Shown here: positions 14,777 to 44,140 of the stretch, piece after piece
Position numbering within the stretch: the first letter of the stretch is position 1
How the letters are laid out: every line of letters starts with the position of its first letter
DNA from: a virus
Taxonomy: Duplodnaviria > Caudoviricetes
Reading direction: 5' to 3' (one strand)
DNA length: 44,810 bases
Virus record (IMG/VR): IMGVR_UViG_3300005805_000146
Span: 1-44,810 of that record
The notes under the pieces: model-generated
Told to the model about the DNA's origin: nothing
Databases searched by the model: none
Seen by the model: the letters and a program-made list of their open reading frames with translations, nothing else
Position numbers and translations under genes: made by a program

Positions 14777-14960
14777 AAAGCACACCAAACTTACCGTCCA
14801 TAATCGCCGGTGTTGCTTTACCGCGTATGCGGTGGCGAAGGGCTTCCTTCAAGCCTTCCTCCCGCGTCTTGGCAAAATTCAAACTTGGAACAAAAAAGCC
14901 CCCGTAAGGGGGCAAATCCAACCACGGATATTTAATCTTCAGTTTTTTCGTGTGTGGCAT
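14751..14960 (-). CDS. Small hypothetical protein (MPHTKKLKIKYPW...), 69 aa
   Basis: Last gene of the minus-strand operon; start overlaps the primase 3' end; convergent overlap with the giant gene. Confidence 0.55.
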   Translation of the reverse strand: MPHTKKLKIKYPWLDLPPYGGFFVPSLNFAKTREEGLKEALRHRIRGKATPAIMDGKFGVLFTVNALRY

Positions 14961-19320: not shown

Positions 19321-19725
19321 TCACTTAGAAGGTTTACGAACACTGATCTGATACTGGGTATCAGAGTTAAGCCCCGGTGGAACAAGTCCGGGATTTTCTT
19401 CAAGGAACTGCGCCATGTTGCGCTGGGCAATGCGCCTTTCCAGAAGGTCAACGGCGTCGTTCTGGATGACAAACTCTTTGAACGACCCCCAATCTTGGGT
19501 GGTGTAGCGGGTCTTGGTGCCAAGCATGACCGTGCCGGAGTCCGTGCGCATGCTTTTTGTGCCCAGCGCCAGCATCTGATCTTTCATGGCGGACTCAAGC
19601 TGGTTCTCCTGCTCGTCCAGCGCGGCCATATCTTCTTCGTACTTTTGGGTCAGCTCGCTCTTTGCGGTGCGTATCTTGAGATACGCCTTGGCGAGCTTAT
19701 CCATTGGAATAATCTCGGTGTTCAT
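19321..19725 (-). CDS. Conserved phage coiled-coil protein of the replication module
   Basis: Start reassigned to MNTEIIP (AGGAG SD); N-terminal coiled coil, DWxxF and VPPGL motifs. Confidence 0.7.
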   Translation of the reverse strand: MNTEIIPMDKLAKAYLKIRTAKSELTQKYEEDMAALDEQENQLESAMKDQMLALGTKSMRTDSGTVMLGTKTRYTTQDWGSFKEFVIQNDAVDLLERRIAQRNMAQFLEENPGLVPPGLNSDTQYQISVRKPSK

Positions 19726-19759
19726 ACTTTCTCCTGTGGTTGGGGTGCTGCTGTCAAAG

Positions 19760-21337: not shown

Positions 21338-21576
21338 TATTTGTTGTCTCCCTGATTCACGCTTTTGCCCCGCAGACGCAGGTTGCCTTTAGTTGACTTG
21401 CCGCCTTTTCGCAGGGGCTTAATGTGATCTATATCTTTACCGCTACGGTCTATCCCCATCTTGTCGTACATGCGCCGCGCTCTCTGGCGCTCGTGCTGTG
21501 CGCTGTCGGGACCGGACTTGCCGGTCTGCAGATCACGCTTGTACTCCTTTTTGTAATCACGTTTTCTTGTAGCCAT
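21337..21576 (-). CDS. Small HNH endonuclease
   Basis: DIDHIKPLRKGG...NL...N HNH pattern. Confidence 0.8.
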   Translation of the reverse strand: MATRKRDYKKEYKRDLQTGKSGPDSAQHERQRARRMYDKMGIDRSGKDIDHIKPLRKGGKSTKGNLRLRGKSVNQGDNK

Positions 21577-24481: not shown

Positions 24482-24750
24482 AAATAGTCCAGTTCGTTTA
24501 AGTTATCTTCGTTGATGACGTATGTCATACCACCTGCGTTACGTATCTTTTCCATCTCTGCTTCCTGCAGTGGCGTGGGTTTGTTCTTGCCTGCCTTGCA
24601 CTCGATGCCGATGAACGTGCCTCTGTAACAACAGATTATGTCTGGTACTCCTGATCTGCCGTAGCCTCCTGTCTGCGGCGTAAAGTAATAAATGTTCTTG
24701 GCTTTAAGTATCTTGTAAACCTTGGCTTTTACTTTGGCTTCCGGGGTCAT
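24478..24750 (-). CDS. VRR-NUC domain nuclease (Holliday junction resolvase-like)
   Basis: TPEAKVK, GVPD, IECK, PTPLQ. Confidence 0.9.
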   Translation of the reverse strand: MTPEAKVKAKVYKILKAKNIYYFTPQTGGYGRSGVPDIICCYRGTFIGIECKAGKNKPTPLQEAEMEKIRNAGGMTYVINEDNLNELDYL

Positions 24751-25675
24751 AGCGCTCCAGCAGTTGATCTGCTTCCTTGAAAATGGTTTCGAGAGAAGTC
24801 ATCTGTGGTTGGTAGCCAATCTCCGCGGCTCGGTGATGCTTTGAATAATAGTTCGGTTTCCTGCCTGTGGGCGCGTGGAATATCCGTTCTGCAATCTGAA
24901 ACTGCAGCCCGTACCTGTGGTTCAACGCCTCCAACAACATGCGTTTGCTTATGGGTTCTTTTGTATATACATCCAGCGCGGCATTGAACCCCGGCACTGC
25001 CAAAATACACATAATCAAACGGTGTAAATCTTCGGGTCCAATGAAGTCCCGCATCAGCGGAAAGTCATCAATAGCGTAGGGGGTAGGGTCAACCCCGCGC
25101 TGGCGCAGGATAGCGTTCATCATCTCCATAATCATAAACTTCGAGGACAGCGGCATTGTGCTGCTGAAGTAGTTAAACACACGCAAGTCCACTATGTGTT
25201 TGGTGTACATGACGCGATGCCTGACCTCTGCCATCCACTTCGCCAGCCCATAATAGTGGTGCTTGCTTATGCTAGATGGATAAGTAATCGGTGTACCACG
25301 CTCAACTGCTTTATCAAACGTGCCGCCATACGCCGCCCCGCTGGAGATAAAGATGTACCTTGTCTCAGGTTTGCGCAGGAACTGCATCGACAACTCGTCA
25401 TACTCTTTGGTGATGTCAAAGATGCTGTCCTGCATATTCAGCAGGCGCACGGGGTCACCCACACCCACGAAGTTAATCACTGCGTCAACGTAGAACTGCC
25501 TACCCTTTAACACGTTGTAGTGCAGCGACGTAAAGCTGGTGTACCCGATGTTTCTCATGAACTCCTGCACAGCATCAGGCTTGCGCGAGAACAAGAGCAA
25601 CGCATGCTCATCATTACATTGAATGATGAAGTCCTTGGCAATCTGGCTGGTCGCCCCGATGATGGCAATCTTCAT
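24704..25675 (-). CDS. NAD-dependent epimerase/reductase (extended SDR) acting on an NDP-sugar
   Basis: IAIIGATSQIA Rossmann motif, ISSGAAYG, YGLAK (YxxxK), LRVFN, RDFI. Confidence 0.88.
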   Translation of the reverse strand: MKIAIIGATSQIAKDFIIQCNDEHALLLFSRKPDAVQEFMRNIGYTSFTSLHYNVLKGRQFYVDAVINFVGVGDPVRLLNMQDSIFDITKEYDELSMQFLRKPETRYIFISSGAAYGGTFDKAVERGTPITYPSSISKHHYYGLAKWMAEVRHRVMYTKHIVDLRVFNYFSSTMPLSSKFMIMEMMNAILRQRGVDPTPYAIDDFPLMRDFIGPEDLHRLIMCILAVPGFNAALDVYTKEPISKRMLLEALNHRYGLQFQIAERIFHAPTGRKPNYYSKHHRAAEIGYQPQMTSLETIFKEADQLLERYDPGSQSKSQGLQDT

Positions 25676-26409
25676 AGCTTCACCACCATCTCAGCCGCTA
25701 GTTCTTCGTCAGACAGGAAAGGAAGCATGTCATGCAGCGGCGCTTGTTTACCGTTCTTAAAGTTCTGCGCGGGTAAGATTTGCTGGCTCTCTGTGCATAG
25801 CACTTCTACAATGTGCGGAGCATTCAGCTTAAACACCGATTGGAAATGCTTATCCATTGTGGTAACGCTCCATGTCTTTGTGGCAGAAATGTTGAACGAT
25901 TCTGCAATTGCAAGAAAATCTGGAAACCACACGCCAGTTTCAGGGCTAACGCCATGCACCCTGCCGCCATAAAAATTAGTTTGTGTATTCTTAATGCTCA
26001 AATACCCACGGTTGTTCAAGATGATGATCTTGATGGGCAGGTTGTGCTCACGGATAGTTGCCAGCTCCTGCATGTTCGACATGAAGCTGCCATCGCCCAC
26101 GATACAGATGACGTTCTTTGCGCCTGCTTTAGCTACGCCTATGGAACCCGGTAACGCCCAGCCCATGTCGGCCTGAGATTGAGACATGGCTATGCGCTGC
26201 TGTGCTCGGATATTTGCCATCTGTGGGAGCATGTAATAAGCAAACCCTGCATCACACAGGTAGACCGCATCGTCTGGGGCGTGAGTAGTGATGGCATTCA
26301 TTACCGCGTATACGTTCAGGCCGTTTGTATCATCCAGATATTCTGGTTGCATAACAGGCCACTTAGCCTTCCAATGCTGGCACTTTGCAATCCACTCTTG
26401 TCTTGTCAT
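25672..26409 (-). CDS. ThDP-dependent enzyme, C-terminal (PP) half; YerE/acetolactate synthase-like
   Basis: MGWALPGSIG and the GDGSFMSN...LNN ThDP/Mg motif. Confidence 0.88.
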   Translation of the reverse strand: MTRQEWIAKCQHWKAKWPVMQPEYLDDTNGLNVYAVMNAITTHAPDDAVYLCDAGFAYYMLPQMANIRAQQRIAMSQSQADMGWALPGSIGVAKAGAKNVICIVGDGSFMSNMQELATIREHNLPIKIIILNNRGYLSIKNTQTNFYGGRVHGVSPETGVWFPDFLAIAESFNISATKTWSVTTMDKHFQSVFKLNAPHIVEVLCTESQQILPAQNFKNGKQAPLHDMLPFLSDEELAAEMVVKL

Positions 26410-27416
26410 TGCATCACCTTAAAAAATCTATCTAAGCGTGTGCACAGCTTGTGGTTTACCGGCACAACATCTTTCTCAAGCTCACTTACATCAATGTCCA
26501 CGTATATCTTTTTGCTGGCAGGGCTGAACTGTTTGGGGTCATAACCAATGACGCCTGCGTTTAAAGAAGTCCCCAGTATCAGCAGCAAGTCAGCGTTCTG
26601 CATGGCGAAGTTCCCATACCGTGTGCCACGCAACCCTACCGCACCCATGTTCAGAGGGTGGTCATAAGGCATGTAGTCCTGTGCACCAAAAGAAGTAACA
26701 AACGGTAGCTGGTATTTAGTAACGAACTGCGCAAACTGTTCCACGCAGCCAGATTGCCGCACCCCCATGCCTGCCAAAACAACCGGACGCTGTGCGCGCT
26801 CTAACAAAAGCTGAATGCTGCTTACATCAAACAGATCGCCTTCCATCAATACGGGTTTGAACGACGGTGAATTTTCAGGCATTTCTGCGCCTTGTATATC
26901 GCTGGGTACGTCTATCCATACAGGACCGCGCCTACCATCCAACGCTAAGTACACAGCCATTTCTATGTGATGCTTCACATGCGCCGGGTCTTGCACAAAC
27001 TCAGAATACTTTGTCATGTTTTTAAACGTGTCCGTTATGCCGTGCTCTTGCAGTCCATAGTGCCGTAACGTAAGACCTTTACGCTCATTTATCCACTGAG
27101 CGCATGTATCTTTCCTCACGTTGCCCGATAGAAAAAGAACAGGAACGCCATCTTGCCAAGCGTTCAACACACTGGTCGCGCAGTTCGTACCCCCGCAACC
27201 GGTGGTCGGGTTGACCACCGCCAGCTTGCCTGTGTACTTAGCTTCGCCAATCGCTGCATGCCCAGCGCCTTGCTCATGGTGATAGCAGATGTACTCGATG
27301 CCGCCGTGCTTGATGAACCCATCGTTCAGCCCCGCCGCACCACCGCCCATCAGCCCATGCACACGGCGTACACCGTTGCTGTGCAGGTACTCTGCTATCC
27401 AATCAGCGACTCTCAT
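26406..27416 (-). CDS. ThDP-dependent enzyme, N-terminal (PYR + central) half; YerE/acetolactate synthase-like
   Basis: Starts MRVADWIAEYL (TGATG overlap with rfbH); catalytic HHEQ, TTGCGGTN, GPVWIDVP, RPVVLAGMG, ADLLLILG. Confidence 0.88.
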   Translation of the reverse strand: MRVADWIAEYLHSNGVRRVHGLMGGGAAGLNDGFIKHGGIEYICYHHEQGAGHAAIGEAKYTGKLAVVNPTTGCGGTNCATSVLNAWQDGVPVLFLSGNVRKDTCAQWINERKGLTLRHYGLQEHGITDTFKNMTKYSEFVQDPAHVKHHIEMAVYLALDGRRGPVWIDVPSDIQGAEMPENSPSFKPVLMEGDLFDVSSIQLLLERAQRPVVLAGMGVRQSGCVEQFAQFVTKYQLPFVTSFGAQDYMPYDHPLNMGAVGLRGTRYGNFAMQNADLLLILGTSLNAGVIGYDPKQFSPASKKIYVDIDVSELEKDVVPVNHKLCTRLDRFFKVMQ

Positions 27417-28675
27417 CAGAAGTTCCCCATAAACATATCGATCTTCTCGATCATGTAGTCGAGCATCTCTTTGGTCAGCGCTGGCTGTACGCCAACCCAC
27501 AACAGGTTATTCATTACCGCATCTGACTCCGACAAGCCGCCCACCACACGGTAGTTCCTGCCCTGCATGTACGGTTGCTTGGTTACGTTGCCAGCGAACA
27601 GCAGGCGTGTGCCAATCTTGTTGTCATTCAGGTAGCGCACGAACGTGTCACGGTCGAAGTCAACATCGTTTAGCAGGATGGGGAAACCAAACCACGAAGG
27701 GTCAGCGTCGGGGTAGATCGTAGGTGTCAGCAAGCTCCATGCGTACTTGTCCAGCCCTTTCAAGAGGTAGTTGTAGTTATCCCTGCGTGCCTGTACGAAG
27801 TTGTCGATTTGCTCTAGCTGCGCCACGCCACATGCTGCCTGCATCTCCGTGATCTTCAGGTTGTAGCCTGCATGGGTGAAGATGTACTTGTGGTCGTAGC
27901 CACAGGGTAGCTGCCCCTGCTGCTGATCAAAGCGCCTGCCGCACGTGTTGTCCCTGCCCGGCGAGCACCAGCAATCCCTCCCCCAATCCCTGAACGACTC
28001 CACCGCACGCGTTAACGTCCTGTCGTTGATGATGACCGCCCCACCCTCGCCCATCGTGATGTGGTGCGCAGGAAAAAAAGACAAGGTAGCCAGATGACCA
28101 AACGTGCCCACCTTCTGCCCCCGCCATGTAGCGCCCAGCGCATCGCAGCAGTCCTCGATCAACCACAGGTTGTGACGCTCCACCAGAGGCATGATTTCTT
28201 CAAGGTTGAACGGATTGCCCAGCGTGTGCGCAATGAAGATGGCGCGGGTCTTGGGCGTGATGGCGGCTTCTAGTGCGGCAGTGTCAATGTTCAACGTGGT
28301 GTTGATGTCAAGGAACACCGGCACGCAGCCGTTCTGGAGGATGGGATTGATGGTCGTGGGAAAGCCGCAAGCCACAGTGATGACTTCATCACCGGGCTTG
28401 ATGGCGCGACTACCCAGCGTGGGGGAGGTGAGCGCGGAGAACGCCAGCAGGTTGGCTGAACTGCCTGAGTTAGTGGTGCGTATGGTAGGGGGCTGCATGG
28501 AGAACAATCTTTCAGTGCTTCCCAGATACTCACCCAGCATGTTCTCGAACTGCGCGTTGAACATGCCAGCAGTCAGCCAGCCGTTGTCCACGGCGGTGTG
28601 CATGTATTCTTTTTCTCGTGCCCCCACCACCTGCCCGGAGGCAGGGATGAAGGTTTCTCCGGGTATGAATGTCAT
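27416..28675 (-). CDS. rfbH: NDP-4-keto-6-deoxyglucose 3-dehydrase (E1/DdhC/RfbH), PMP- and [2Fe-2S]-dependent
   Basis: DegT fold with SFFPAHHITMGEGG (His replaces the Schiff-base Lys), EDCCDA, RDCWCSPGRDNTC and YDHKY. Confidence 0.92.
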   Translation of the reverse strand: MTFIPGETFIPASGQVVGAREKEYMHTAVDNGWLTAGMFNAQFENMLGEYLGSTERLFSMQPPTIRTTNSGSSANLLAFSALTSPTLGSRAIKPGDEVITVACGFPTTINPILQNGCVPVFLDINTTLNIDTAALEAAITPKTRAIFIAHTLGNPFNLEEIMPLVERHNLWLIEDCCDALGATWRGQKVGTFGHLATLSFFPAHHITMGEGGAVIINDRTLTRAVESFRDWGRDCWCSPGRDNTCGRRFDQQQGQLPCGYDHKYIFTHAGYNLKITEMQAACGVAQLEQIDNFVQARRDNYNYLLKGLDKYAWSLLTPTIYPDADPSWFGFPILLNDVDFDRDTFVRYLNDNKIGTRLLFAGNVTKQPYMQGRNYRVVGGLSESDAVMNNLLWVGVQPALTKEMLDYMIEKIDMFMGNF

Positions 28676-29454
28676 ACAGGCGTCCGTTCAGGGGTTGGGG
28701 TTTGTGCGATCTCAGTGGGGGCTGGCATCAGTTGCCCGTCGAACTTGTGTGTGCCGATGTGCCCAAGCTGCGCCCACGGCGCTGCCCATACTGTGCCGCC
28801 ACACTTCTCGCGCCATATCTTGCAGAAGTGATAGTCCTCGGACAGCAGGCGCTCACCAATCGGCTCGATGCTGGTAGCGAAGAACTCATGAATACGGTCT
28901 TGCCCGATGTTGCCGCCCAGATCGTTGGTGTCGTTGATGTAGGTGGGAACGTGCTCTTTCAGTTGCTCAAACACCTCGCGTTTGATCAGCATGAAGCCTG
29001 TACCGCCGTTCCATATCTCGGTGGGATGCCCAATATCAACCCGCGCCTGATCAGCGTAGCCTACGAGATTGACGACGAACGAGCCAGAGTATTTGCGAAG
29101 CTCGTGCGGAGGAACACCAGCCTGTGCTGCTGCGTGAATAGCGTTCCAGTTAATCTCTTTCTTGGGGTAGATGCCACAGATGATCGGCTTGTCGGCCAGC
29201 AGCATGGGCAACACGTCCTGTGGGTTGAAGTGGATGTCAGCGTCAATGAACATCAGGTGCGTGAAGTCGGTACGCAAGAAGCCATGCACCAGTGCGTTGC
29301 GCGCACGTTGAATCAGCGACTCGTTAAAGAGGAAGCTGCATGCCGTGTCGATGCGGTTATCCCGCAGCATGTTTTGCAGACTGAGAAGGGACTGCGCGTA
29401 GTAGCCAGCGCACAGTCCTCCGTACATTGGGGTTGCGATGAAAAGCTTTGCCAT
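28672..29454 (-). CDS. GT-A fold glycosyltransferase-like protein (paralog A)
   Basis: IATPMYGG, ESLIQRARN, FIDADI (DxD), GIYPKK, GTGFMLIKR, LSEDYHFC. Confidence 0.8.
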   Translation of the reverse strand: MAKLFIATPMYGGLCAGYYAQSLLSLQNMLRDNRIDTACSFLFNESLIQRARNALVHGFLRTDFTHLMFIDADIHFNPQDVLPMLLADKPIICGIYPKKEINWNAIHAAAQAGVPPHELRKYSGSFVVNLVGYADQARVDIGHPTEIWNGGTGFMLIKREVFEQLKEHVPTYINDTNDLGGNIGQDRIHEFFATSIEPIGERLLSEDYHFCKIWREKCGGTVWAAPWAQLGHIGTHKFDGQLMPAPTEIAQTPTPERTPV

Positions 29455-29462
29455 GATTTCTC

Positions 29463-30182
29463 CTAGTATTTAAAGACTGATTTTTGTAGCCACGCAAAGT
29501 CGGGCATTTTGTTGCGCATAAACGCGTTATTGCCTAAGAACTTTTCTTTCGTCATACCTCCCGTGCCATCGGTTGACAGCCTGTAATTAACGGAGTGCTT
29601 GCCAGTGGTTCCGCATGCAATCCTTGCTTGGCACAGCGCTCTCATGAACGAGCGATCAGACACCACCGGCACGTACCACGCATGGCTGTGCTGCCTTGCT
29701 ACATCGGCGCGTACTGCGTAGCAGGAGTTGTCCACGAGGAACTGATCGTGTGAGTTTGGGTGCATGCCCAGCGACTCGCAATTGTCATCACAGATGAAGT
29801 TACCCTCCGCGTCCACAATACGGCGCAGGCTGTACGCCCAGCCGAGATCGTGTTCCTCGATCATCTTCACCAGTTCCTCAATGTGCCCCGGCTCGTACCA
29901 GTTATCGTCATCAAGATAGAAGATCACATCTTCCTCAACCAGATACGGCGCAGCAGCAAAGACAGGCGCCATGCCGTAACCGTTCTTGCCGTTGGCGATG
30001 GGGAGGTTAACTACAGTAACCGGCAAGCCGTTTGTGCTTTCCTCCACCGCATCCCAGCAATCCCTGCCGTGCGCAAATATATAGTGGTGTGCTGGATACG
30101 ACTGTGCGTCAACGCTGTACGCAGCTTCTCTTATCAGCTTGCGCCCTCGTGTGCTGGTGACTACTGCTACAGATAAACTCAT
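29463..30182 (-). CDS. Glycosyltransferase family 2-like
   Basis: VAVVTST..R, SVDAQSY, YLDDDNWY, SDR, SVNYR. Confidence 0.85.
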   Translation of the reverse strand: MSLSVAVVTSTRGRKLIREAAYSVDAQSYPAHHYIFAHGRDCWDAVEESTNGLPVTVVNLPIANGKNGYGMAPVFAAAPYLVEEDVIFYLDDDNWYEPGHIEELVKMIEEHDLGWAYSLRRIVDAEGNFICDDNCESLGMHPNSHDQFLVDNSCYAVRADVARQHSHAWYVPVVSDRSFMRALCQARIACGTTGKHSVNYRLSTDGTGGMTKEKFLGNNAFMRNKMPDFAWLQKSVFKY

Positions 30183-31117
30183 CTCAACTTCTCCATGTGG
30201 TGCAGCATTGTGTCAACGAAGTGCGCGTTGTAGAACTGCTCTGCCTGTGGTGATGCCAGATACTGCTGCATGGCGTACATGTACTTCATGTAGTCCTCAT
30301 ACGTGATGTCGTTCAAGAACTCCAGCAAGTCCTCGTAGAACTTGTACTTGCGCATGTCGATGAAACACTCAGGCGGGATGTGGTCAGTCACGTTCGGTGC
30401 GCCCCAGTACACAGGCACAACGCCTGCCAGCAGGCAGTCCAGCATCTTCTCTGTGATGTAGCCCCGCGCATGATTGCAGTTCTCGAACGCAATACAGAAG
30501 CGATATTTGTTTAGCACCTCCATTTTGTTGGACGCTGCGCCTTTCCATGAGCTAAAGCCGTTCCAGTTCCTGCCCCACAGATCAAACATACCCGATGCTC
30601 TGCTCTCAAAGAACTGGATGACGTTATCGCGCTTACCGTACAAGCTGTTGGGGTGGCTGTGCATCTTGCGCGTTTGCATCAACACGATGGGCTTGCGCAA
30701 AATAAATTCTTCACGTGTCAGGTTCGTGGGGCTAGCGTTCTGTAGATCAGCCGTGAAGTTGCTCTTGAAATACTTGACGTTATCTACCAGCCGGTCGTCC
30801 CATGTGAACACTTTGTCGCAGGTAGCATGAAACGCCTTGTCCCAATTCTCAGGGATAAGCATGTCGGGTTCGTAGATGATGAGTATTTTTTTCTTAGCTG
30901 GATAAAGTTCGCCCCGCGGTCTGTCCATCATGATGAGCAGATCAGCCTCACCTTTGAACTGGTCAGGCGTGTACATATTGATGCCACGCTCATCAGCCGC
31001 CACGAACAGATCGTTCCACGGCTTTAACAAATTAAAGCCAATGTCGCTTTCCTTGTTCGTGAACAAGTGACCGTCTGTCGTGATGAAAGGGTAGTGGTTT
31101 TGTACGACGACGTTCAT
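30179..31117 (-). CDS. Glycosyltransferase family 10 (alpha-1,3-fucosyltransferase-like)
   Basis: K...LNKYRFCIAFEN....GYITEK..D...AG.VPVYWG is the GT10 signature. Confidence 0.9.
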   Translation of the reverse strand: MNVVVQNHYPFITTDGHLFTNKESDIGFNLLKPWNDLFVAADERGINMYTPDQFKGEADLLIMMDRPRGELYPAKKKILIIYEPDMLIPENWDKAFHATCDKVFTWDDRLVDNVKYFKSNFTADLQNASPTNLTREEFILRKPIVLMQTRKMHSHPNSLYGKRDNVIQFFESRASGMFDLWGRNWNGFSSWKGAASNKMEVLNKYRFCIAFENCNHARGYITEKMLDCLLAGVVPVYWGAPNVTDHIPPECFIDMRKYKFYEDLLEFLNDITYEDYMKYMYAMQQYLASPQAEQFYNAHFVDTMLHHMEKLR

Positions 31118-31878
31118 GTGTTGTTCCTTCCTGCTCTCATCAAATCTCCCGCATACACATGCTGCCCCACATGGCGCAACTCAATCGTCGGGTCAGCGTA
31201 TATCTGCCCGCCTTCTTTCTTCCACAACTCACAGAAGTGGTAGTCCTCTGAGAGCAACAACCCAAGCTCAGTGATGGATGTGCCGAAGAACTCACGCGTC
31301 AATGGTGCTAAGAACTGACCGTTGTTCGGGTCAGTAATTAAGCTGGTGCGGTATGTGGGAACCTTAAAACGCAGCGCTTTCAACACGCTCCTGTGTATCA
31401 GCATGAACCCTGTGCCGCCGTGCAGTACTTCTACCAGACCCTCGTCGTTTAACGGAACCTTGTCGCCATCGTCAGCTACGGCGTTGAGTACATAGCTGCA
31501 CCCGAACTTGCTGATGTCACTTTCACCGCGCAGCGCGGCGTCACGTATCCTGTCCCAAAACAAAAACTTTTTAGGGTAGATACCGCAGACCATCTGTTTG
31601 TCGTGTTGTAGTAGCCGGTGTATCGCGTCTGTGGGAAACCATATGTCGGCGTCAATAAACATGAGGTAGTCATCTTGTGTCTCGTCAAGAAAGTATCTGG
31701 CAATCTCGTTCCTCGCGCGGGTAATCAGCGCTTCCTTGTTCATGAACTGCCAGCGAGTCTTGATGCCTTGACTCTCAAGGTAGCTGACGTTGCGCAGCAT
31801 GCTGTCCACGTACTCCATGAACATCGCACCGCCATACGCAGGAGTGCCGATCATGATGGTTGGTTTACCGTCGATCAT
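31114..31878 (-). CDS. GT-A fold glycosyltransferase-like protein (paralog B)
   Basis: Start reassigned to MIDGKPT (ATGA overlap); same motif set as 28672-29454. Confidence 0.8.
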   Translation of the reverse strand: MIDGKPTIMIGTPAYGGAMFMEYVDSMLRNVSYLESQGIKTRWQFMNKEALITRARNEIARYFLDETQDDYLMFIDADIWFPTDAIHRLLQHDKQMVCGIYPKKFLFWDRIRDAALRGESDISKFGCSYVLNAVADDGDKVPLNDEGLVEVLHGGTGFMLIHRSVLKALRFKVPTYRTSLITDPNNGQFLAPLTREFFGTSITELGLLLSEDYHFCELWKKEGGQIYADPTIELRHVGQHVYAGDLMRAGRNNT

Positions 31879-32879
31879 ATGAGTGCGTACCTGTAAACGG
31901 GGTTGAAGGTATTGAAGTTGAAGTTGCCATACGCACGCGACCAGTGTGCGGCGTTGACAAGGTTGGCTGAAGGACACGACACGCTTTCTTTGCAATCGAT
32001 CAGCGCGATGTAGTTCTTCAGGATTGGCAAGCACGAGACTTTCCCTGCGTACTTGTGGTGGTAGCCATTGTGATAATCAGGCGTGATGTTCTCTGCAACT
32101 GTGTCCATGCACACACCCTTTGCCAGTTCATAGTCGTCTGAGAGCACGAGAACACGAGGCACACGCCGGGCAAGGTTGTTGATGTCTGTCCGGTAACGAG
32201 AGAACGGCGGTAACGGCACTTCAACCTGCGCCTTGTCGCCGCCCCGCACGAACACCAAGCCAGCGTCCTCGACGCTGAACTTATCTTTCTTGTAGTAACG
32301 ACGCACCGCACGTTCAATGCTGCAGTACATGTCGTATTTGAAGGTGTAGAACTGCCGCAGATACACCTCGCCTGCGTTAAAAATGAACTCGCGCATGGCG
32401 TCGAAGTGAACCGCTATTGTGTTTTCAGGTATGCGGTCAACGAGCGTGAACACGCCTCGGAAAACATCGTCGAACTTTTCGTCGTAGCTCCACCAGTCAT
32501 AGGTGTTATCCACGATTAGCTCTTTACCGGACAGGCGTGCGACGTAGGCAGCGACGATTAAGTTCTCGATGACAGAAAAAAAGCCAGAGTTGCGGGGCTG
32601 GTAGAGCATCGTGCCATTGGGCACAATCGGAGGCAGCATGTCATAGTCAGGCAGGATGCCGACATGCAGGTCGTACTGTTCAGGTGTGATGTTGTATTTG
32701 CGGCAGGCGTGTTCCATCCCCAGACAGGCGATAACTTCCTGTCGATAGAAGGTGTGCTTTGGCAGGGTAGCTGGCAGGTCAGCGGCATCGCCGTTGCCCC
32801 AGAAAAAGCGACGTGCGGCGATAGCAGCTAACCGTTCAGCATCCCCCGTGGGAGAAGAGTAAGAGTGGAATTGAATCAT
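31875..32879 (-). CDS. Fucosyltransferase-superfamily (GT11/GT23/NodZ-like) glycosyltransferase
   Basis: SGFFS, VFVRGGDK (cf. HVRRGDK), VLVLSDD, and a late C..S.N motif. Confidence 0.6.
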   Translation of the reverse strand: MIQFHSYSSPTGDAERLAAIAARRFFWGNGDAADLPATLPKHTFYRQEVIACLGMEHACRKYNITPEQYDLHVGILPDYDMLPPIVPNGTMLYQPRNSGFFSVIENLIVAAYVARLSGKELIVDNTYDWWSYDEKFDDVFRGVFTLVDRIPENTIAVHFDAMREFIFNAGEVYLRQFYTFKYDMYCSIERAVRRYYKKDKFSVEDAGLVFVRGGDKAQVEVPLPPFSRYRTDINNLARRVPRVLVLSDDYELAKGVCMDTVAENITPDYHNGYHHKYAGKVSCLPILKNYIALIDCKESVSCPSANLVNAAHWSRAYGNFNFNTFNPVYRYALI

Positions 32880-33546: not shown

Positions 33547-34041
33547 TCAGTCATCTACCGAAGCTTCTGTGCCGCGCTTTGCGTTTAAGTTGGGAGCTAG
33601 CATGTCAGCCTTTGACAGACCGTCAGGCAAACGCCAAACCTCCAGCACGGTCTTGTCTTTGTTGGTGACACAGGTCACGCGACCCTTGCCCCACATCTGA
33701 CCGCCCGACGCCGTGATGCTGGACTGCAGGGCATGCCAATCAAACGTGCCCACCGGAACCTGCACCAGATCATCTGGCTGCATGTCCCTGATGTACGGCA
33801 TGTAGTAGGCAATCAGCGTGCCGTAAGGCAGCTTGCTCTTGACCCGCGTCTTGCGGGGCTTGGCAATGGGCTTGCTGAGATCGAGCGTTGCTTCTCTGAT
33901 GCTGTACTTTTCCGACAGCACGGCATAGTCGATGCCGCACTTGGTGTTCAGCAGCTTCAGAGTGTACAACGCACGCTCCAGCATGCTCTGGTAGGTTAAA
34001 GGAAGGTTTGCAACGGAAAGAGATTTAGGCTGTTTAGCCAT
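33547..34041 (-). CDS. Hypothetical protein
   Basis: Start MAKQPK with GGAG SD and its own promoter. Confidence 0.75.
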   Translation of the reverse strand: MAKQPKSLSVANLPLTYQSMLERALYTLKLLNTKCGIDYAVLSEKYSIREATLDLSKPIAKPRKTRVKSKLPYGTLIAYYMPYIRDMQPDDLVQVPVGTFDWHALQSSITASGGQMWGKGRVTCVTNKDKTVLEVWRLPDGLSKADMLAPNLNAKRGTEASVDD

Positions 34042-34068
34042 GATTAACTCCATGTGGTTGGTGGGTGA

Positions 34069-34096
34069 ATAATACAGATGTGGTACTGCGTGTCAA
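34069..34096 (-). promoter_or_regulatory. sigma70-type promoter TTGACA-16-TATTAT
   Basis: -35 at 34091-34096 and -10 at 34069-34074. Confidence 0.65.
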
Positions 34097-35913: not shown

Positions 35914-36939
35914 TTATTCAGCGATTTCGCTGTCCATGTTGCCGTTGTCGAACAAGTCCCACACCCATGCTGCTGCTTCCTCTGGGTCAGAGTCCACGAG
36001 TATGCGCATCTCGCCTTCCTCCTTCTCACCGTAGCTCTCGATCAACAGGTACTCAGCCTTGTCCGGTGCAGCGACAACCCAGTCAACAAGCTGGTGCATA
36101 CCGCGTCGATAGCAGTTGTGTGCAGCACGCACGATCTTGTTCATGTTCATCTTCTTGGGCTTGATGTTGTAGCCCTCGTACTCGTCATCGTAGTCGCCGT
36201 ACGCTTTGCCCTCTGGGTCGTACTCATCCCAGCCGAGCATCTTGCTTGAGTGCTTGGTGATAGGCGTAACAGTGCTGGGCTTGCCTTTGCCTGTGGAATA
36301 CGTTGTGTAGCCACCGAACCCATCGCTGTAGTAGTCATCGTCATAGCGTGACCAGCCACCATACGAACGCTTCGCACCATGCCCATGCTTGTGTGCTGAC
36401 CATGCGTAGGTGTTGGACAGCCACGCGCCTTGATGCTCAACGCCTGCCTCGTAGTTAAGCACGACGATCTCGCCGCTACTGTGCAAGAACGCGAACTTGT
36501 TAGCTGCGCCGATCATCTTCTCGATGTACGCCTGATAGTCAGGGTCAAGGATGATGTTAGGGTTGGCGAGCATGGCAGGCTTCAAGATGAACTCGATGAA
36601 GTGCCACGTGTCAGACTTGCGTTGATCGATGGGGTTGCCCATTGACAGGATGCCGTTGTGCGCCATCCACAGATCGTCAGTGACTTTGTATGGATGACAG
36701 TTGTCAAGATCAATGTCACCGTGCGTTTTCATGCGGTAGTGAATGATGCACTCACGACCCTTCAGTGTGTCACGGTAGAGCGTGTTGATCTCGGCAGGTT
36801 TGCCAAGCGTCTTGATGACAACGATGCTGCCGTTCTCGACATACATCGCACCGAAGCCGTCAGGGTTGTAGGAATAAAAGTCGTTCAGCAGTTCGTCGTT
36901 GAACGCGGTGTTAGCTGGATGATGGATAAGTATGCACAT
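35914..36939 (-). CDS. Class II glutamine amidotransferase (Ntn hydrolase)
   Basis: N-terminal MC nucleophile, NPDGFG, HYRMKTHG, NCHPY, AHNG, SDT; Tyr/Gly/acidic tail. Confidence 0.9.
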   Translation of the reverse strand: MCILIHHPANTAFNDELLNDFYSYNPDGFGAMYVENGSIVVIKTLGKPAEINTLYRDTLKGRECIIHYRMKTHGDIDLDNCHPYKVTDDLWMAHNGILSMGNPIDQRKSDTWHFIEFILKPAMLANPNIILDPDYQAYIEKMIGAANKFAFLHSSGEIVVLNYEAGVEHQGAWLSNTYAWSAHKHGHGAKRSYGGWSRYDDDYYSDGFGGYTTYSTGKGKPSTVTPITKHSSKMLGWDEYDPEGKAYGDYDDEYEGYNIKPKKMNMNKIVRAAHNCYRRGMHQLVDWVVAAPDKAEYLLIESYGEKEEGEMRILVDSDPEEAAAWVWDLFDNGNMDSEIAE

Positions 36940-36965
36940 AGTTAGTTCTCCTTGTGGTTGGTTGA

Positions 36966-38945
36966 TTAAGCAGTGAAGCCGACAGCGGTGAGATAGTTAC
37001 GCAGATAGCGTGTTTCAGGTTTCATCACGTCGGCGTTGATGAAGTCCATGAACTTGTCAGTCGTCAGAACAAAGCCAGCCTGCGATGCAGGTGCAGTGAA
37101 CTTGACTAGCGCATGGGTGAACTCGAGCGCAGCAAGCAACGAGTCGTGCTTTAGCGTACCTTTGAAGATGCGCATCTCGATGGTGCGACGGTTGGTCAGG
37201 TTGACTGCCTCGTAGCGTGGGTCACTGCGTGACGGTTCATGTGCAGTGCCGAGCTTCTTGGCGTGCATGGATGCGTAGCCAACACCATGACGACGAGCAA
37301 TCGCTTTGATCAAGTTGCGATTGTCAGGTGAGTGAATGAACACGCACATCTTGTTGATCTGCAAGCGGTTCAGATTGTTGCGGTTGACGTGGACGTGCAG
37401 GCCACAGGTTGATGTGTCGTGACTACGCAGGTTTGCTGTTAGTGATTTGTCCTGCAGCCACTCCCAGAACTGATAGTGTGTGTCCAAGCCCATCGGTTGC
37501 GTGATGATCTCGAAGCCATTAGATAGCGAACCATCTTCCTCGAAGAAGCAACGTGCGCCAGCGTCACCGTCATTGAGTGCATCGTTTAGCTTGTCAACGT
37601 AGTCACCAGGGTGACCCTTGCGGCACTCGACCTCAAGCTCGATGCCGAAGAACCGATCGTTCTGCTTTGTCCACTCAGAGATGACAGCACTATAGTCATC
37701 GTTGTTCTTGGCAGTGTGATAGCGACGCAGCACACGCGACGGTGGTGAGTAGTCATGATGCACACGGCAGTCCTCCTCATCGTCGTAGTAGAAGTCATCC
37801 TCATCGCAGTGGATAGTGATGCGCTCACCATGCCGATTGAGTGCCGTGCAAGCGTCATCGCGGTGAATGTAGCCCTCGCTGTAGTCGCTGTACACATAGT
37901 TCTGGTCAATGCAAGTGCGGCACACATCGCTGCTATCGTCGAACGCAGGAGTCTGCATCTCATCTCGCATCTCCCACTCACCGCAGTCACTGCACGTATT
38001 GAAGTCGTTGTCGTGCAGCAGTTCCTCGACGTCATCGCTATCCTCGTAGTTGAGCAAGCTGCTGATGACTGAGCGTATTGCGCTAAGGCGCATATCGTTA
38101 GTGGCTGGATACGCCAACCTGCCATAGTTAAGCTCGTAGTACGCTCTCACATAGCCTGTGTTTGATTTACTGCACACATCGTCTAGCGTGTCGCTGACAA
38201 GCGTGCGCAGCTTGCTACGCATATCCTGCAAGTAGCGTGACCCATCGTAGCTGTTTGTATCTCTCACTGCATCAGTGATTGCCAGTACGAGAGGGTTAAC
38301 GATTGCCTGCACCACGTTTGCCAGCGGATACAAGTCATCCACATCCTCGCCGTTGTTGAGGCGTTTGGTTATTGCTGCGCCCAGCGCATCAGCGAACCCA
38401 TCGAGCACAAGCTGCGCTTCTCTGTACTCAGCGTTAGTGAATGGATAGACGACTTCAGTGTCAGCCGATGTGCCAAGATCAATGCCGTTGTTGCGTATGT
38501 AGTTCTTCAGCGCACTAAGCTGCGCCAGCATGAGGAAGCTCTGCCCGATGCGTTTGTAGTACGGCTGCGTGCTGAAGTACGGCTGGACGTTATCGATACA
38601 CGCTCTGTCTTTCATTGTCGTACCGATAGGCAGATGGTCAGCTACGATCAACTGATAGCGGCGTGTGCCGTGACGTGCGGCTTCTACGGTGTCTTGCATG
38701 GTTGCCTCCTGTGTGGTTGGTTGTGCTTCTGGTGCTACTAAATCGCGATGCTCATACATGGGGCGACCGGTGTGGTCACGCCCTACCTCGACGTGCATAC
38801 CTATGTCGTGCCAGTCGTCAGAGGTTTGCGGAACAACGCAGATTAGCTGCCCTTGCTGGATGTAGTAATTGCGTGTGCCAATGGGCAGGATGTCGCCCTC
38901 GTTTGCGGGCAGGCTGTACCCGTCGATGAAAGCAAATCTAGGCAT
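36966..38945 (-). CDS. Amidoligase (COOH-NH2 ligase type 2, glutamine synthetase-like) with N-terminal extension and CxxC motifs
   Basis: FGIELEVE, EEDGSL, GFEIIT, CGLHVHV, RYEAVN, TIEMRIF; CSDC and CRTC upstream of the catalytic domain; second in-frame start at 38699. Confidence 0.88.
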   Translation of the reverse strand: MPRFAFIDGYSLPANEGDILPIGTRNYYIQQGQLICVVPQTSDDWHDIGMHVEVGRDHTGRPMYEHRDLVAPEAQPTTQEATMQDTVEAARHGTRRYQLIVADHLPIGTTMKDRACIDNVQPYFSTQPYYKRIGQSFLMLAQLSALKNYIRNNGIDLGTSADTEVVYPFTNAEYREAQLVLDGFADALGAAITKRLNNGEDVDDLYPLANVVQAIVNPLVLAITDAVRDTNSYDGSRYLQDMRSKLRTLVSDTLDDVCSKSNTGYVRAYYELNYGRLAYPATNDMRLSAIRSVISSLLNYEDSDDVEELLHDNDFNTCSDCGEWEMRDEMQTPAFDDSSDVCRTCIDQNYVYSDYSEGYIHRDDACTALNRHGERITIHCDEDDFYYDDEEDCRVHHDYSPPSRVLRRYHTAKNNDDYSAVISEWTKQNDRFFGIELEVECRKGHPGDYVDKLNDALNDGDAGARCFFEEDGSLSNGFEIITQPMGLDTHYQFWEWLQDKSLTANLRSHDTSTCGLHVHVNRNNLNRLQINKMCVFIHSPDNRNLIKAIARRHGVGYASMHAKKLGTAHEPSRSDPRYEAVNLTNRRTIEMRIFKGTLKHDSLLAALEFTHALVKFTAPASQAGFVLTTDKFMDFINADVMKPETRYLRNYLTAVGFTA

Positions 38946-38969
38946 GGTTGCCTCCTATGTGGTTGGTTA

Positions 38970-41692: not shown

Positions 41693-41840
41693 CAATAGGC
41701 GAACCCCACCATACCCCGACCCCCACAAAATATTGCAGCGGCGGCGCTCCGACCCGATCACTAATCCCCACAAACACCACACAATTTTCTTAAAATCATG
41801 ACAACAGCCCCCAAAAATTTTAAAAAATTTACCACCACTC

Positions 41841-41856
41841 TGTCTAATATTAGACA
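41841..41856. promoter_or_regulatory. Perfect 16-bp palindrome TGTCTAATATTAGACA (operator family B)
   Basis: Related sites at 34091-34106 and 19752-19767 overlap promoters. Confidence 0.6.
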
Positions 41857-41865
41857 TACGTAGCC

Positions 41866-41892
41866 AAAAAAAGCCCCCACCGAAGTGGGGGC
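41866..41892 (-). terminator. Intrinsic terminator with cUUCGg tetraloop
   Basis: GCCCCCAC-TTCG-GTGGGGGC-TTTTTTT. Confidence 0.85.
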
Positions 41893-41964
41893 AAAAGCCG
41901 CTTGGCTTTAGCGAGAGATCTCCAACCACGGAGACAGCCCCTGTGTAAAAATTTACACAGAGAC
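41866..41964 (-). ncRNA. Putative ~100-nt trans-acting small RNA with four hairpins
   Basis: Own promoter and terminator, no ORF; G-U pairs form only on the minus strand; seed complementary to five ribosome-binding regions. Confidence 0.7.
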
Positions 41965-41981
41965 AAAACCGAGTATATACT
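41952..41981 (+). promoter_or_regulatory. Putative terS/late promoter TTTACA-18-TATACT
   Basis: -35 at 41952-41957 and -10 at 41976-41981, about 30 nt before the terS ATG. Confidence 0.5.
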
Positions 41982-42000
41982 CCGGTAACTTTGACTGCAA
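41972..42000 (-). promoter_or_regulatory. sRNA promoter TTGCAG-17-TATACT
   Basis: -35 at 41995-42000 and -10 at 41972-41977. Confidence 0.6.
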
Positions 42001-42012
42001 CAGTCAACGCCT

Positions 42013-42627
42013 ATGCTTGAGCACCTTCTCGATGAAACCCTCTTCACTCCTGACGTGCTCCCCACGCCAGCGGCTAAACACGTCGATAAAGCCACCCCGG
42101 CTGAACTGATTGATGCGCAGGTTGAGACTGCAAAATGGCTTGAAGAGCTGGGGGCAACGCCAGACGAGGACATCCACGACCAGTTACAAGAGCACACCGC
42201 ACGCGAAGCCTTCGCGGTGTTAACACAAACCACTGACGTCAAGAAGCAACGCGCCACACTAACCAAGATCGAGACGCCAGAGGCGGTAAAGCATCTGGTG
42301 GGGATGCTAACGGCATACGACTGGCACTTTGTGGAGCAGGCCAAGGAGATCAGAGGCTACGCGGTGGCAAAATTAGTGGAAGAAACAGCCCATCCTGACG
42401 CCAAAATACGCCTGCGAGCGCTGGAACTCTTGGGGAAAGTCACGGAAGTGGCGCTCTTCACCGATCGGGTGGAGGTCAAAAAGACCGAAATGTCTGACAA
42501 CGAGCTGGATGACCGCATCAAAGAGAAGCTGGAGCGCATGGCAAAGATCATTGACGTGTCAGATGTAACGGAAGTGGAGTCAAAACTGGTGGAGGACGGG
42601 GATGAACCTGACGAAACAGGAAATTGA
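42013..42627 (+). CDS. terS: Terminase small subunit
   Basis: Directly upstream of terL; RLRALELLGK...LFTDRVEV motif. Confidence 0.75.
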   Translation: MLEHLLDETLFTPDVLPTPAAKHVDKATPAELIDAQVETAKWLEELGATPDEDIHDQLQEHTAREAFAVLTQTTDVKKQRATLTKIETPEAVKHLVGMLTAYDWHFVEQAKEIRGYAVAKLVEETAHPDAKIRLRALELLGKVTEVALFTDRVEVKKTEMSDNELDDRIKEKLERMAKIIDVSDVTEVESKLVEDGDEPDETGN

Positions 42628-44140
42628 CGCTCTCCAGAAGCTCCTCCCCACGCTAAACCCCCAAGAAAAAGCAGAACTGCTGGCGGATTTGGAAGAGAGA
42701 GCCGCCCGTGCGGCCAAAAACGCGGCAAAAACGTCATTGTTGGGCTTTGCCACCCACGTGTACCCCGGATTCAAGGTGGGACCGCATCATAGGAAATTAT
42801 CGCGCATCTTTAGCGATGTAATAAACGGAAAAAAGAAGCGGGTCATCATCAATATTGCGCCGCGTATGGGTAAATCGGAGTTCTCCTCCTACCTGTTCCC
42901 GGCATATTTCATGGGGCACTACCCCGAAAAGAAAATCATTATGGGCACGCATACCGCGTCCCTCTCAGAAGACTTCGGTCGTCGCGTAAAGAACTTAATT
43001 GACAGTGAAGAGTACCAAGAAATCTTTCCGGGAACGCAGATTGCAGAAGACCAGAAAGCCGCAGGAAAGTGGTCCACAGTGGCCGGAGGCCAGTATTACG
43101 CAGCAGGTGTTGGTGGAGCACTGGCCGGTCGTGGTGCAGACCTTTTTGTCATCGATGACCCGCACTCAGAACAAGACATGAGGGCGAACAGCCGCTTAGC
43201 GTTCGATACCGCATGGCAGTGGTTCCAGCAAGGTCCCTTGCAGCGCTTGATGCCCAACGGGGCAATCATCGTAATCATGACGCGCTGGTCGCTGCTTGAC
43301 CTGACCGGTCGTTTGATTGACTACCAGATCAAGAACCCCGACACTGAGCCGTGGGAGATCGTAGAACTCCCTGCCATATTGAATGATGGCGAGGACAACG
43401 AGAAAAGCTTGTGGCCTGAGCAGTGGCCGCTGGAGGTCTTGAAGTCCAAGAAGGGCGCGATGGACCCGCGGTACTGGAACGCGCAGTACATGCAGAACCC
43501 CACCTCGGAGGCGTCAGCCATCATCAGCCGGGGCATGTGGAAAATCTGGGAGTACGACGAGCCACCGCAGTGCGAGTACATCATTCAGAGCTGGGATACC
43601 GCGCACGAGGAAAAGACCACTGCCGACTATTCGGCATGCACCACGTGGGGCGTGTTCTATAACGACGAGGATGGCGGGGCACCGAACCTGATACTGCTGG
43701 ACGCCTTCAAGGACAGGATGGGCTTCCCGGAACTGAAACAGGTCGCGTTCAAGCACTGGAAGGAGTGGGAGCCAGATGCGTTCATTGTGGAGAAAAAGGC
43801 GGCAGGTGCGCCACTCATTCAAGAGTTTCGTGCGATGGGTATTCCCGTGGACGAGTTCACGCCAAGCCGAGGCAAGCAACGAGGCTCAACTGACAAAACC
43901 GCCCGTCTCAACGCTATCGCTGACTTTTTCTTCAGTGGCAAGGTCTGGGCACCAGATACACGATGGGCAAGAGAAGTGATTGAGGAACTCGCTGCCTTCC
44001 CCGTGGGCGAGCATGACGATTACGTCGATACGATCTCACAAGCGCTACTGCGCTACCGTCAGGGCGGGTTCATCAGCCTGCCATCGGACTACGAGGACGA
44101 GCCACAGTTTTTCAGGCGCAAATCACACGCCTACTATTAA
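42602..44140 (+). CDS. terL: Terminase large subunit
   Basis: APRMGKS Walker A, VIDDP Walker B, MTRW, YMQNP, SWDTA and HDDYVD nuclease motifs. Confidence 0.96.
   Translation: MNLTKQEIDALQKLLPTLNPQEKAELLADLEERAARAAKNAAKTSLLGFATHVYPGFKVGPHHRKLSRIFSDVINGKKKRVIINIAPRMGKSEFSSYLFPAYFMGHYPEKKIIMGTHTASLSEDFGRRVKNLIDSEEYQEIFPGTQIAEDQKAAGKWSTVAGGQYYAAGVGGALAGRGADLFVIDDPHSEQDMRANSRLAFDTAWQWFQQGPLQRLMPNGAIIVIMTRWSLLDLTGRLIDYQIKNPDTEPWEIVELPAILNDGEDNEKSLWPEQWPLEVLKSKKGAMDPRYWNAQYMQNPTSEASAIISRGMWKIWEYDEPPQCEYIIQSWDTAHEEKTTADYSACTTWGVFYNDEDGGAPNLILLDAFKDRMGFPELKQVAFKHWKEWEPDAFIVEKKAAGAPLIQEFRAMGIPVDEFTPSRGKQRGSTDKTARLNAIADFFFSGKVWAPDTRWAREVIEELAAFPVGEHDDYVDTISQALLRYRQGGFISLPSDYEDEPQFFRRKSHAYY

Follow-up and report, generated by a model that had tools for sequence, protein, structure and literature searches.

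The small RNA GcvB pairs through a G/U-rich seed with C/A-rich enhancers. Phages also encode RNAs that block translation by pairing, for instance c4 of P1 and P7 and sar of P22, which pair by their loops around the RBS of phage mRNAs (PMC12197685). In the systems treated in the relevant parts of that source, phage antisense RNAs act on one phage mRNA or on host genes. For the Betaproteobacteria toxic sRNA family RF02278, CU-rich stretches are predicted to cover the RBS of many mRNAs (PMC5688073, PMC4603805), and expression of an RNA of this type in E. coli inhibited growth (PMC5688073). A further parallel is provided by the start-associated sequences (SAS) and ESAS of cluster K mycobacteriophages and cluster EF Microbacterium phages (PMC3203893, PMC7302621, PMC11373665). 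In cluster K the SAS is a 13-bp tag found at 11-19 starts, with a single reversed copy in four genomes, and whether its partner is RNA or protein was left open in 2011 (PMC3203893); its role was still described as unknown in 2024 (PMC11373665), and the parts of this literature drawn on here identify no partner. A phage small RNA with a multi-gene regulon and a leader tag that tracks its seed was not found in a search of papers available without subscription. In addition, seed strings of the family were not found in seven supplementary files of a survey of 10,000 viral RNAs (PMC10690425); this search did not extend to two further large files, where the family may be listed without a function.

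The locus compared here with these systems lies in a whole virus record of 44,810 nt, about 70% complete, which is referred to as the window. On the plus strand, virion and DNA-ejection genes are at the left end and terminase genes at the right end. Genes on the minus strand run from ~41570 to 14750 and comprise small hypothetical ones and those for an amidoligase, a glutamine amidotransferase, sugar-modifying enzymes, polymerase, helicase and primase; from gene content alone, the minus arm is labelled early/middle and the plus arm late. Back-to-back with the presumed small terminase gene, for which there was no family match, is a gene-free unit (Table 1) that is likely to be transcribed as a small RNA. 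The favoured reading, at a probability of roughly 55%, is that this is a trans-acting small RNA (sRNA) that damps the phage's own early and middle genes in lytic growth, and its sequence relatives make up an apparently undescribed, conserved phage sRNA family with a plausible self-regulon.

The large terminase is ~50% identical to those of HTVC023P, HTVC027P and DSL-LC04, and an assignment to the HTVC023P type was dropped because the best matches of the polymerase are KPP25-like and Rhizobium phages at 29%; no cultured relative of the polymerase was found above about 30% identity. A probable sugar-modification pathway cluster occupies 24704-32034 of the minus strand, with an epimerase, a TPP enzyme, a DegT aminotransferase and several glycosyltransferases. 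The TPP enzyme lies in two ORFs (26406-27500 and 25672-26409), both of which match one PHROG.

Table 1. Coordinates of the predicted sRNA unit, its genomic partners and the predicted target leaders in the window (net energies in kcal/mol)
Feature	Position	Strand	Basis or remark
Predicted small RNA, about 101 nt	41866..41966	-	5' end inferred from -10 box
Hairpin 1, 12 bp including two G-U	41937..41964	-	Pair changes in clade A
Hairpin 2, with seed UGUCUCC-GUGGUUGG at 41936-41922	41918..41936	-	Helix 41935-41918
Hairpin 3, variable, missing from some relatives	41894..41909	-	Relatives compared
Intrinsic terminator GCCCCCAC-UUCG-GUGGGGGC plus U7	41866..41892	-	Stem 41892-41873
sRNA promoter -35 box TTGCAG	41995..42000	-	17-nt spacer to TATACT
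Palindromic -10 region, TATACT on both strands	41971..41982	both	Minus 41977-41972, plus 41976-41981
Predicted terS promoter -35 box TTTACA	41952..41957	+	Under hairpin 1 loop
Presumed small terminase gene (terS)	42013..42627	+	Position before terL; divergent partner of predicted sRNA
Large terminase gene (terL)	42602..44140	+	PHROG 38, E 7e-102; anchor for finding relatives
DUF7307 (Pam3 gp33-like) gene, 134 aa, predicted target leader	19725..19743	-	Rank 1/50, net -12.8
Internal amidoligase start (ATG 38699), predicted target leader	38699..38720	-	Rank 2/50, net -11.4
Class-II glutamine amidotransferase gene, predicted target leader	36939..36961	-	Rank 3/50, net -8.4
SNF2 helicase start 21337, additional candidate site AAUCA-GGGAGACA	21345..21357	-	Rank 4/50, net -8.2
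Upstream amidoligase start (ATG 38945), predicted target leader	38945..38966	-	Rank 5/50, net -7.1
164-aa protein gene, predicted target leader	34041..34061	-	Rank 10/50, net -4.8

The unit folds much as a sequence-only reading of the window had described it, with a z-score of -5.56 and none of 200 shuffles as stable, and the G-U pairs that this reading had placed in hairpin 1 on the minus strand are there, two in number. Its count of four hairpins needs amending, as the fourth of the four helices is the UUCG terminator, leaving three hairpins and a terminator; likewise, the GUGGUU loop it gave for hairpin 2 has 6 nt only if the closing G-U pair opens, the minimum free energy loop being one of 4 nt. 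Within hairpin 2 the anti-SD sequence lies in the 5' arm and the anti-CCAACCAC sequence in the loop and 3' arm, and opening the hairpin costs 8.5 kcal/mol. When the two strands were compared, the minus fold was -51.0 and the plus fold -40.5 kcal/mol, and the strand was not picked by z-score alone because both score about -6.2 to -6.3. A second GUGGUU hairpin (14918-14925), after the primase stop and before a terminator-like stem, was dropped as a second sRNA because the stretch codes for Y-P-W-L-D in a minus-strand ORF that is itself conserved: its YPW/FPW and GGFFVP residues recur, despite base changes, in two related genomes (G006 and G008). This ORF of 65-74 aa (14751-14960, minus strand) overlaps the 3' end of the primase gene, carries a YPW...GGFFVP motif, is conserved in lineages A, C, D and F of the relatives described below, and had no NCBIfam match.

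The promoter proposed for the unit, TTGCAG-17-TATACT, is present in the sequence but failed a consensus scan, its -35 box matching the consensus at only three of six bases; the scan instead reported TTTACA-18-TATACT on the plus strand, which the sequence-only reading had passed over, on the same palindromic -10 region. This region is predicted to act as a bidirectional promoter for the sRNA and terS, and the implied distance of about 23 bp between the two start sites is a common spacing for such promoters (PMC12825309). The arrangement is repeated in relatives, where the -10 region is symmetric, with TAYACT-like hexamers on both strands. Among 24 distinct promoter configurations, TTG at a 17-nt spacer is found on the sRNA side in 20, and a terS-side -35 box (TTG or TTTAC at 17-18 nt), under the hairpin 1 loop, in 16; conservation of boxes on both sides supports a promoter in both directions. 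As sequence features, an own promoter, a seed and an intrinsic terminator with a U tail are also those of Hfq-dependent trans-acting sRNAs.

Several further elements flank the unit. Just past the sRNA terminator is the palindrome TGTCTAATATTAGACA (41841-41856), a possible protein site, of which 41 of 49 relatives have a TGTC..GACA form; after it come T- and G-rich tracts, which might be the sign of a packaging or genome end. Another palindrome, TTGACTG-TTG-CAGTCAA (41991-42007), lies over the sRNA -35 box and is not kept in close relatives. Past the sRNA terminator, three related loci (L061, L073 and L075) have in common a second hairpin-terminator stretch, possibly another small RNA (minus strand, L061:6055-6160 and L075:514-610). 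Three sequencing runs matched the window at a 5-8% word share; all hold assembled contigs only, and the contig that spans the unit (41764-42028) comes from a run flagged as probably DNA.

Relatives were collected by two terL scans that together gave 120 distinct loci, the second scan supplying the best 80 of 552. A unit was scored on the minus strand by a -10 box, CTCC or TTCC, a stable fold, and a GC stem with a T run. By this rule, it stands back-to-back with terS in 91 of the 92 loci having at least 900 nt upstream of terL, near-copies included, and the same rule applied to the plus strand as a control was satisfied in 2 of the 92. The unit is also visible in a locus with 66% terL identity. 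A 14-mer scan of viral contigs returned 119 loci, and about 1,900 terL-matching stretches are estimated for the family. In the cultured relatives scanned, the unit was absent from four of five records, and the one weak match in DSL-LC04 was dropped, as it lies inside a CDS and is without a U tail. A sequence-only model (R1) was built from 30 phage RNAs outside lineage A, whose 30-row alignment gave no consensus pairs; it matched the window at the unit and nowhere else (14.2 bits, E 0.0075), and missed two loci, L069 and L096.

Changes on both sides of predicted pairs point to a folded RNA in clade A. In an alignment of nine hand-picked distinct sequences, with L069 and extra-hairpin versions left out, 90.7% of cells are paired, as against 39-58% in slid controls. 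Five of 18 pairs change on both sides, a result matched by none of 500 shuffles, in a test where kinship alone can beat shuffles for some measures. These changes fall on 3 of the 12 pairs of hairpin 1 and on 2 of the 6 stem pairs of hairpin 2, the loop of which is invariant. In relatives, the 3' arm of hairpin 1 or the adjoining linker carries an anti-start-codon.

The motif CCAACCAC occurs nine times in the window (seven minus, two plus), against 1.40 copies expected, and none of 100 shuffles reaches nine. The tag that the sequence-only reading had placed at five minus-strand starts was recovered among the same seven minus-strand copies: five have GGAG 1-3 nt further on, succeeded by an ATG that opens 134-659 codons, and the other two (24805 and 35024) lie inside coding sequence, with their context kept in G001 and G002. 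Thus CCAACCAC(N1-3)GGAG precedes 5 of 30 SD-bearing minus-strand starts (29 script-called, plus the internal start 38699), and no 8-mer upstream of the SD other than CCAACCAC is shared by as many of them; in 20,000 runs of a second-order Markov null built on those leaders, five copies were never reached. The only plus-strand tag with GGAG is the mirror of the RNA. When the leaders of 50 window starts were ranked for pairing, as the same reading had proposed, using a ViennaRNA approximation that includes opening costs rather than IntaRNA, the five sites took ranks 1, 2, 3, 5 and 10 with accessibility. The predicted hybrids have -18.8 to -24.3 kcal/mol; net energies in the window are modest (-4.8 to -12.8 kcal/mol), and a bulge is needed at every target.

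The predicted targets differ in how far their leaders can be followed. The glutamine amidotransferase leader keeps the motif in clade-A orthologs and lacks it in a class-B ortholog (L132), the additional helicase site, absent from the list of the sequence-only reading, is kept in G001 and G002, and for the 164-aa protein no family match was found. At 38700-38945 (minus strand), the amidoligase ORF has two in-frame starts with near-identical leaders, and the G001 protein lacks anything corresponding to its first 82 codons, which suggests either a fused upstream ORF or two isoforms. Both starts are plausible, because 38699 roughly coincides with the start of the G001 homolog. Directly upstream of the tagged leader of gene 34041 is a near-consensus promoter, TTGACA...TATTAT (11/12; 34068-34096, minus strand). 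An inverted repeat, GCGGGAC-N-GTCCCGC, has four minus-strand copies in the early region (41612, 41172, 40546 and 38989), two of them directly before an RBS and one next to the tag; four are also present in G001. Other lineages have different repeated palindromes before early leaders, for instance GGGTCACAGTGACCC-like ones in G008, and such palindromes are possible operators or processing hairpins.

If the RNA acts on these leaders, seed and leaders should change together among relatives, a check that the sequence-only reading had named. In lineage A, which includes the window and accounts for 18 of 91 loci, the seed is CUCC-GUGGUUGG in a hairpin; outside it, the seed in most relatives is a CU-rich single-stranded anti-SD linker. 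The open-linker seeds are GCUUCUCC in B, GCUUUCUCC in C, CUACUCUCC in D, CUAUUCUCC in E and GUUUCUCC in F. In a terL tree made by a quick method with a midpoint root, A, D and E have one origin each and C has two, on a B background. Leaders of each class were counted in 49 genomes or loci picked for long upstream DNA, with identical leaders collapsed, in the order own lineage, other lineages, own plus-strand starts. The counts are 13/102, 4/437 and 0/68 for class A, 34/267, 10/273 and 1/137 for class B, 18/82, 22/457 and 0/26 for class C, 11/47, 5/492 and 0/28 for class D, and 5/21, 21/519 and 1/9 for class F, the motif classes having been set after the seeds and some leaders had been seen and the p-values ignoring kinship. 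Class E leaders do not follow the seed (1/21, 20/518 and 0/6). The virion-arm (plus-strand) starts are near-devoid of the tag, and at minus-strand starts its frequency is no higher than about one in eight to one in four.

The DUF7307 gene shows the change of leader with seed within one set of orthologs: its leader reads CCAACCAC-A-GGAG in A, GGAGAAG[C/T]A in B and F, GGAGAAAGC in C and GGAGAGTTG in D, and fits the seed of its own lineage in all five. A matrix of pairing energies for 16 genomes has clear blocks for A and D only; the B, C and F seeds differ by one base and cross-react, class B RNAs rank 1-11 and class C RNAs 7-8 on their own genomes, and the class E genome ranks 15 of 16 on its own leaders. 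One genome (G014) combines a B seed with mostly C-type leaders, and almost no strong sites are found in G007 (1/18) and G010 (1/10). Duplexes of -20 kcal/mol or stronger are commoner at minus- than at plus-strand starts in seven of the nine genomes with both arms, for instance 12/24 versus 3/20 in G001 and 8/20 versus 0/14 in G006. Together, these comparisons suggest about two clean independent seed shifts (A and D versus B/C/F), with finer shifts visible by motif counts only and one miss (E). Covariation of seed and leaders thus holds for A and D, by motif count for B, C and F, and for the DUF7307 orthologs, and fails for E; on this test the proposal of a multi-target antisense RNA over the SD of the phage's own minus-strand starts is supported in its core, lineage E apart.

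A likeness to GU-rich seeds that meet CA-rich enhancers, also part of the sequence-only reading, applies to lineage A, where, as with GcvB, the partner of a GU-rich seed in several mRNAs is an AC-rich stretch immediately preceding the SD. It does not extend to the other lineages with their CU-rich open linker, for which the double-hairpin sRNA of RF02278 is the nearer model. Even in the window, the seed differs from that of GcvB in sitting in a hairpin and in also covering the SD, and there is no Rfam match.

Under the favoured reading, the unit would be transcribed by a host sigma70-type polymerase. In lineage A, the loop (G)UGGU(U) would first contact the unstructured AC-rich CCAACCAC, whereupon hairpin 2 would open and CUCC/UGUCUCC would cover GGAG(GCA) across a target bulge of 1-3 nt, with the covered SD blocking ribosome loading at tagged starts. 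A seed locked in a stem would spare ordinary SD sites, host ones included. In most other lineages, the open CU-rich linker would cover SD, spacer and AUG directly. A reading as translation activation was dropped, as the pairing covers the SD itself. The outcome would probably be damping of early and middle proteins as lytic infection proceeds, timing being the least certain step. The promoter shared with terS suggests a tie between the sRNA and the late programme; however, activation of one direction tends to repress the other at E. coli bidirectional promoters (PMC12825309), and for this reason the sRNA could equally be high while the late direction is off.

The same antagonism of directions favours an alternative in which RNA and pairing are as described and the job is a different one, the RNA being made during quiescence of the late promoter and early genes being held down for a dormant or carrier state, or for superinfection exclusion, in the manner of P1/P7 c4. 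The sRNA promoter is of the host sigma70 type and on paper needs no phage factor, and lineage-specific seeds would form immunity groups, c4 being what underlies P1/P7 heteroimmunity (PMC12197685). As with c4 and sar, the predicted RNA is phage-encoded and pairs around the RBS of phage mRNA; those RNAs, however, hit one antirepressor mRNA in temperate phages, whereas here five or six scattered tagged starts are concerned, and the Rfam C4 model matches neither the window at gathering level nor the surroundings of the unit at E up to 1 and 5. Signs of a temperate life are also missing where they were looked for: no integrase, repressor or antirepressor was found among the 50 proteins scanned in the ~70% complete record. 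A search of 185,579 genomes gave six terL hits, on MAG contigs of five unrelated groups, five of them shorter than 5 kb, and none has a prophage-like context. Since several targets are, moreover, small or accessory genes rather than obvious master regulators, a role in dormancy or exclusion is considered unlikely, and damping during lytic growth is preferred.

RNA-RNA regulation would be dispensed with altogether if the seed were an inverted copy of a repeated phage RBS cassette, its likeness maintained by recombination or by use as a protein site, or a plus-strand RBS with a minigene, and if the hairpins had their role in termination or at the terS promoter. An SD plus ATG or GTG does appear on the plus strand in 26 of 42 distinct seeds, other palindromes are repeated in the early regions, and hairpin 1 overlaps the terS -35 box, so that its conserved loop is explained without an RNA role. 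However, 16 of the 42 seeds have no start, the mirror ORFs range from 1 to 235 codons with no conservation, and nine seeds have ACG, ATA or ACA as the start-codon mirror, changes that lose the plus-strand start and keep AUG pairing via G-U. The minigene was dropped on these grounds, and they favour an antisense RNA. The mirror also sits upstream of the predicted plus-strand start site, and the spacing at targets (1-5 nt) never equals the 0 nt of the seed, unlike what a copied repeat would give. G-U pairs number 232 on the minus and 27 on the plus strand over distinct RNAs, and the minus fold is the more stable in 45 of 46, so that an explanation without RNA-RNA pairing appears distinctly unlikely beside that of an antisense sRNA.

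No Rfam family matches the window at gathering level. Against RF02278 the window scores 26.9 bits, with a cut-off of 50, and phage loci score 22.6-26.9 bits, the window being best among the 5 and 13 loci scanned; against RF02837 (anti-hemB) the window scores 21.6 bits and the best phage locus 23.9, with a cut-off of 49.5, and in both families the 3' part is what matched. RF02278 copies above the cut-off are present in 24 of 31 genomes of the Limnohabitans family. The arrangement in ten host copies matches that of the phage unit: after a -10 box and, in most, a 5' hairpin come a UGUCUCC linker, another hairpin and the terminator. In these copies (L291-L300), a 5' hairpin and -10 box mostly lie 30-60 nt upstream of the model start (upstream of position 1500); the host primary transcripts are probably longer than the Rfam model.

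Both RNAs contain the 7-mer UGUCUCC, with which the RF02278 consensus begins, both have a hairpin and then an intrinsic terminator after a CU-rich anti-RBS stretch, and for both the predicted mode of action is occlusion of the RBS on many mRNAs. The phage unit differs in being single-copy and back-to-back with terS, in having no second CU-rich loop (the window loop is (G)UGGU(U), that of host copies CCUCC-type), and in predicted targets that belong to the phage itself and change along with the seed. The anti-SD of the window is also paired in hairpin 2 behind the GUGGUU loop, most other lineages having a largely unpaired linker. The layout is thus like that of RF02278 at a score below the cut-off for membership, and common descent is possible. 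A betaproteobacterial host is suggested by this likeness and the TTGC-type -35 box of the sRNA promoter, compared with the B. cenocepacia consensus TTGCC, only.

The likeness raises the prospect of a captured or mimicked betaproteobacterial toxic anti-RBS sRNA used for takeover, mainly against host mRNAs, with the match to phage leaders secondary; a phage-built model does match six of the ten host copies (14.5-23 bits), many host SD sites would be partners for the open CU-rich seeds of classes B-F, and cells grow more slowly when ncS27 is overexpressed (PMC5688073). Among candidate rather than proven hosts, represented by 41 genomes from the family to which a Limnohabitans MAG belongs, the tag occurs 0-6 times per genome, by hand sum 103 times against 119 for a reversed control, and so does not appear to be a generic SD context of candidate hosts. 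With a stem-locked window seed whose loop target is not enriched in these genomes, seeds that track the phage's own leaders, and model scores that come partly from generic terminators, mainly host targets are the least probable reading considered.

The SAS resemble the window's tag in being a conserved extended RBS tag at a subset of non-structural starts, all facing the same way except for a single reversed copy that is not near a start. They are unrelated to it in sequence, host group and phage type, and the window leaders, judged by those listed, differ from the 13-bp SAS consensus. The ESAS have an upstream inverted repeat; in the window, GCGGGAC..GTCCCGC is found four times in the early region and only once next to the tag. 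In the 34.6 kb of Adephagia examined there are 16 forward SAS and one reversed. The reversed copy lies between genes 92 and 93 (L282:33683-33695), where it makes up the 10-nt loop of a long hairpin on the strand transcribed rightward, and the gap between these genes is where late transcription appears to start (PMC11373665). A reversed SAS core was not found in the examined parts of Pixie and TM4, and an antisense scan of both returned only the reverse strands of the SAS sites themselves.

A broader and more tentative proposal is that phages took over a betaproteobacterial anti-RBS sRNA scaffold, gave it a two-way promoter in common with the packaging genes, and directed it at a barcode in the leaders of their own early genes. 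Such a system would be an RNA-run switch of translation from early to late, with an address that co-evolves with its regulon, and the same logic, reached independently, would explain the SAS of cluster K. For the latter, the Adephagia hairpin with its reversed SAS gives a direct test, in a cultured phage with a laboratory host, of a question open since 2011. The RNA would also offer a small, naturally evolved template for SD-blocking RNAs that owe their specificity to a seed locked in a stem. If the favoured reading is true, the timing of infection in a large uncultured phage family would gain a post-transcriptional layer.
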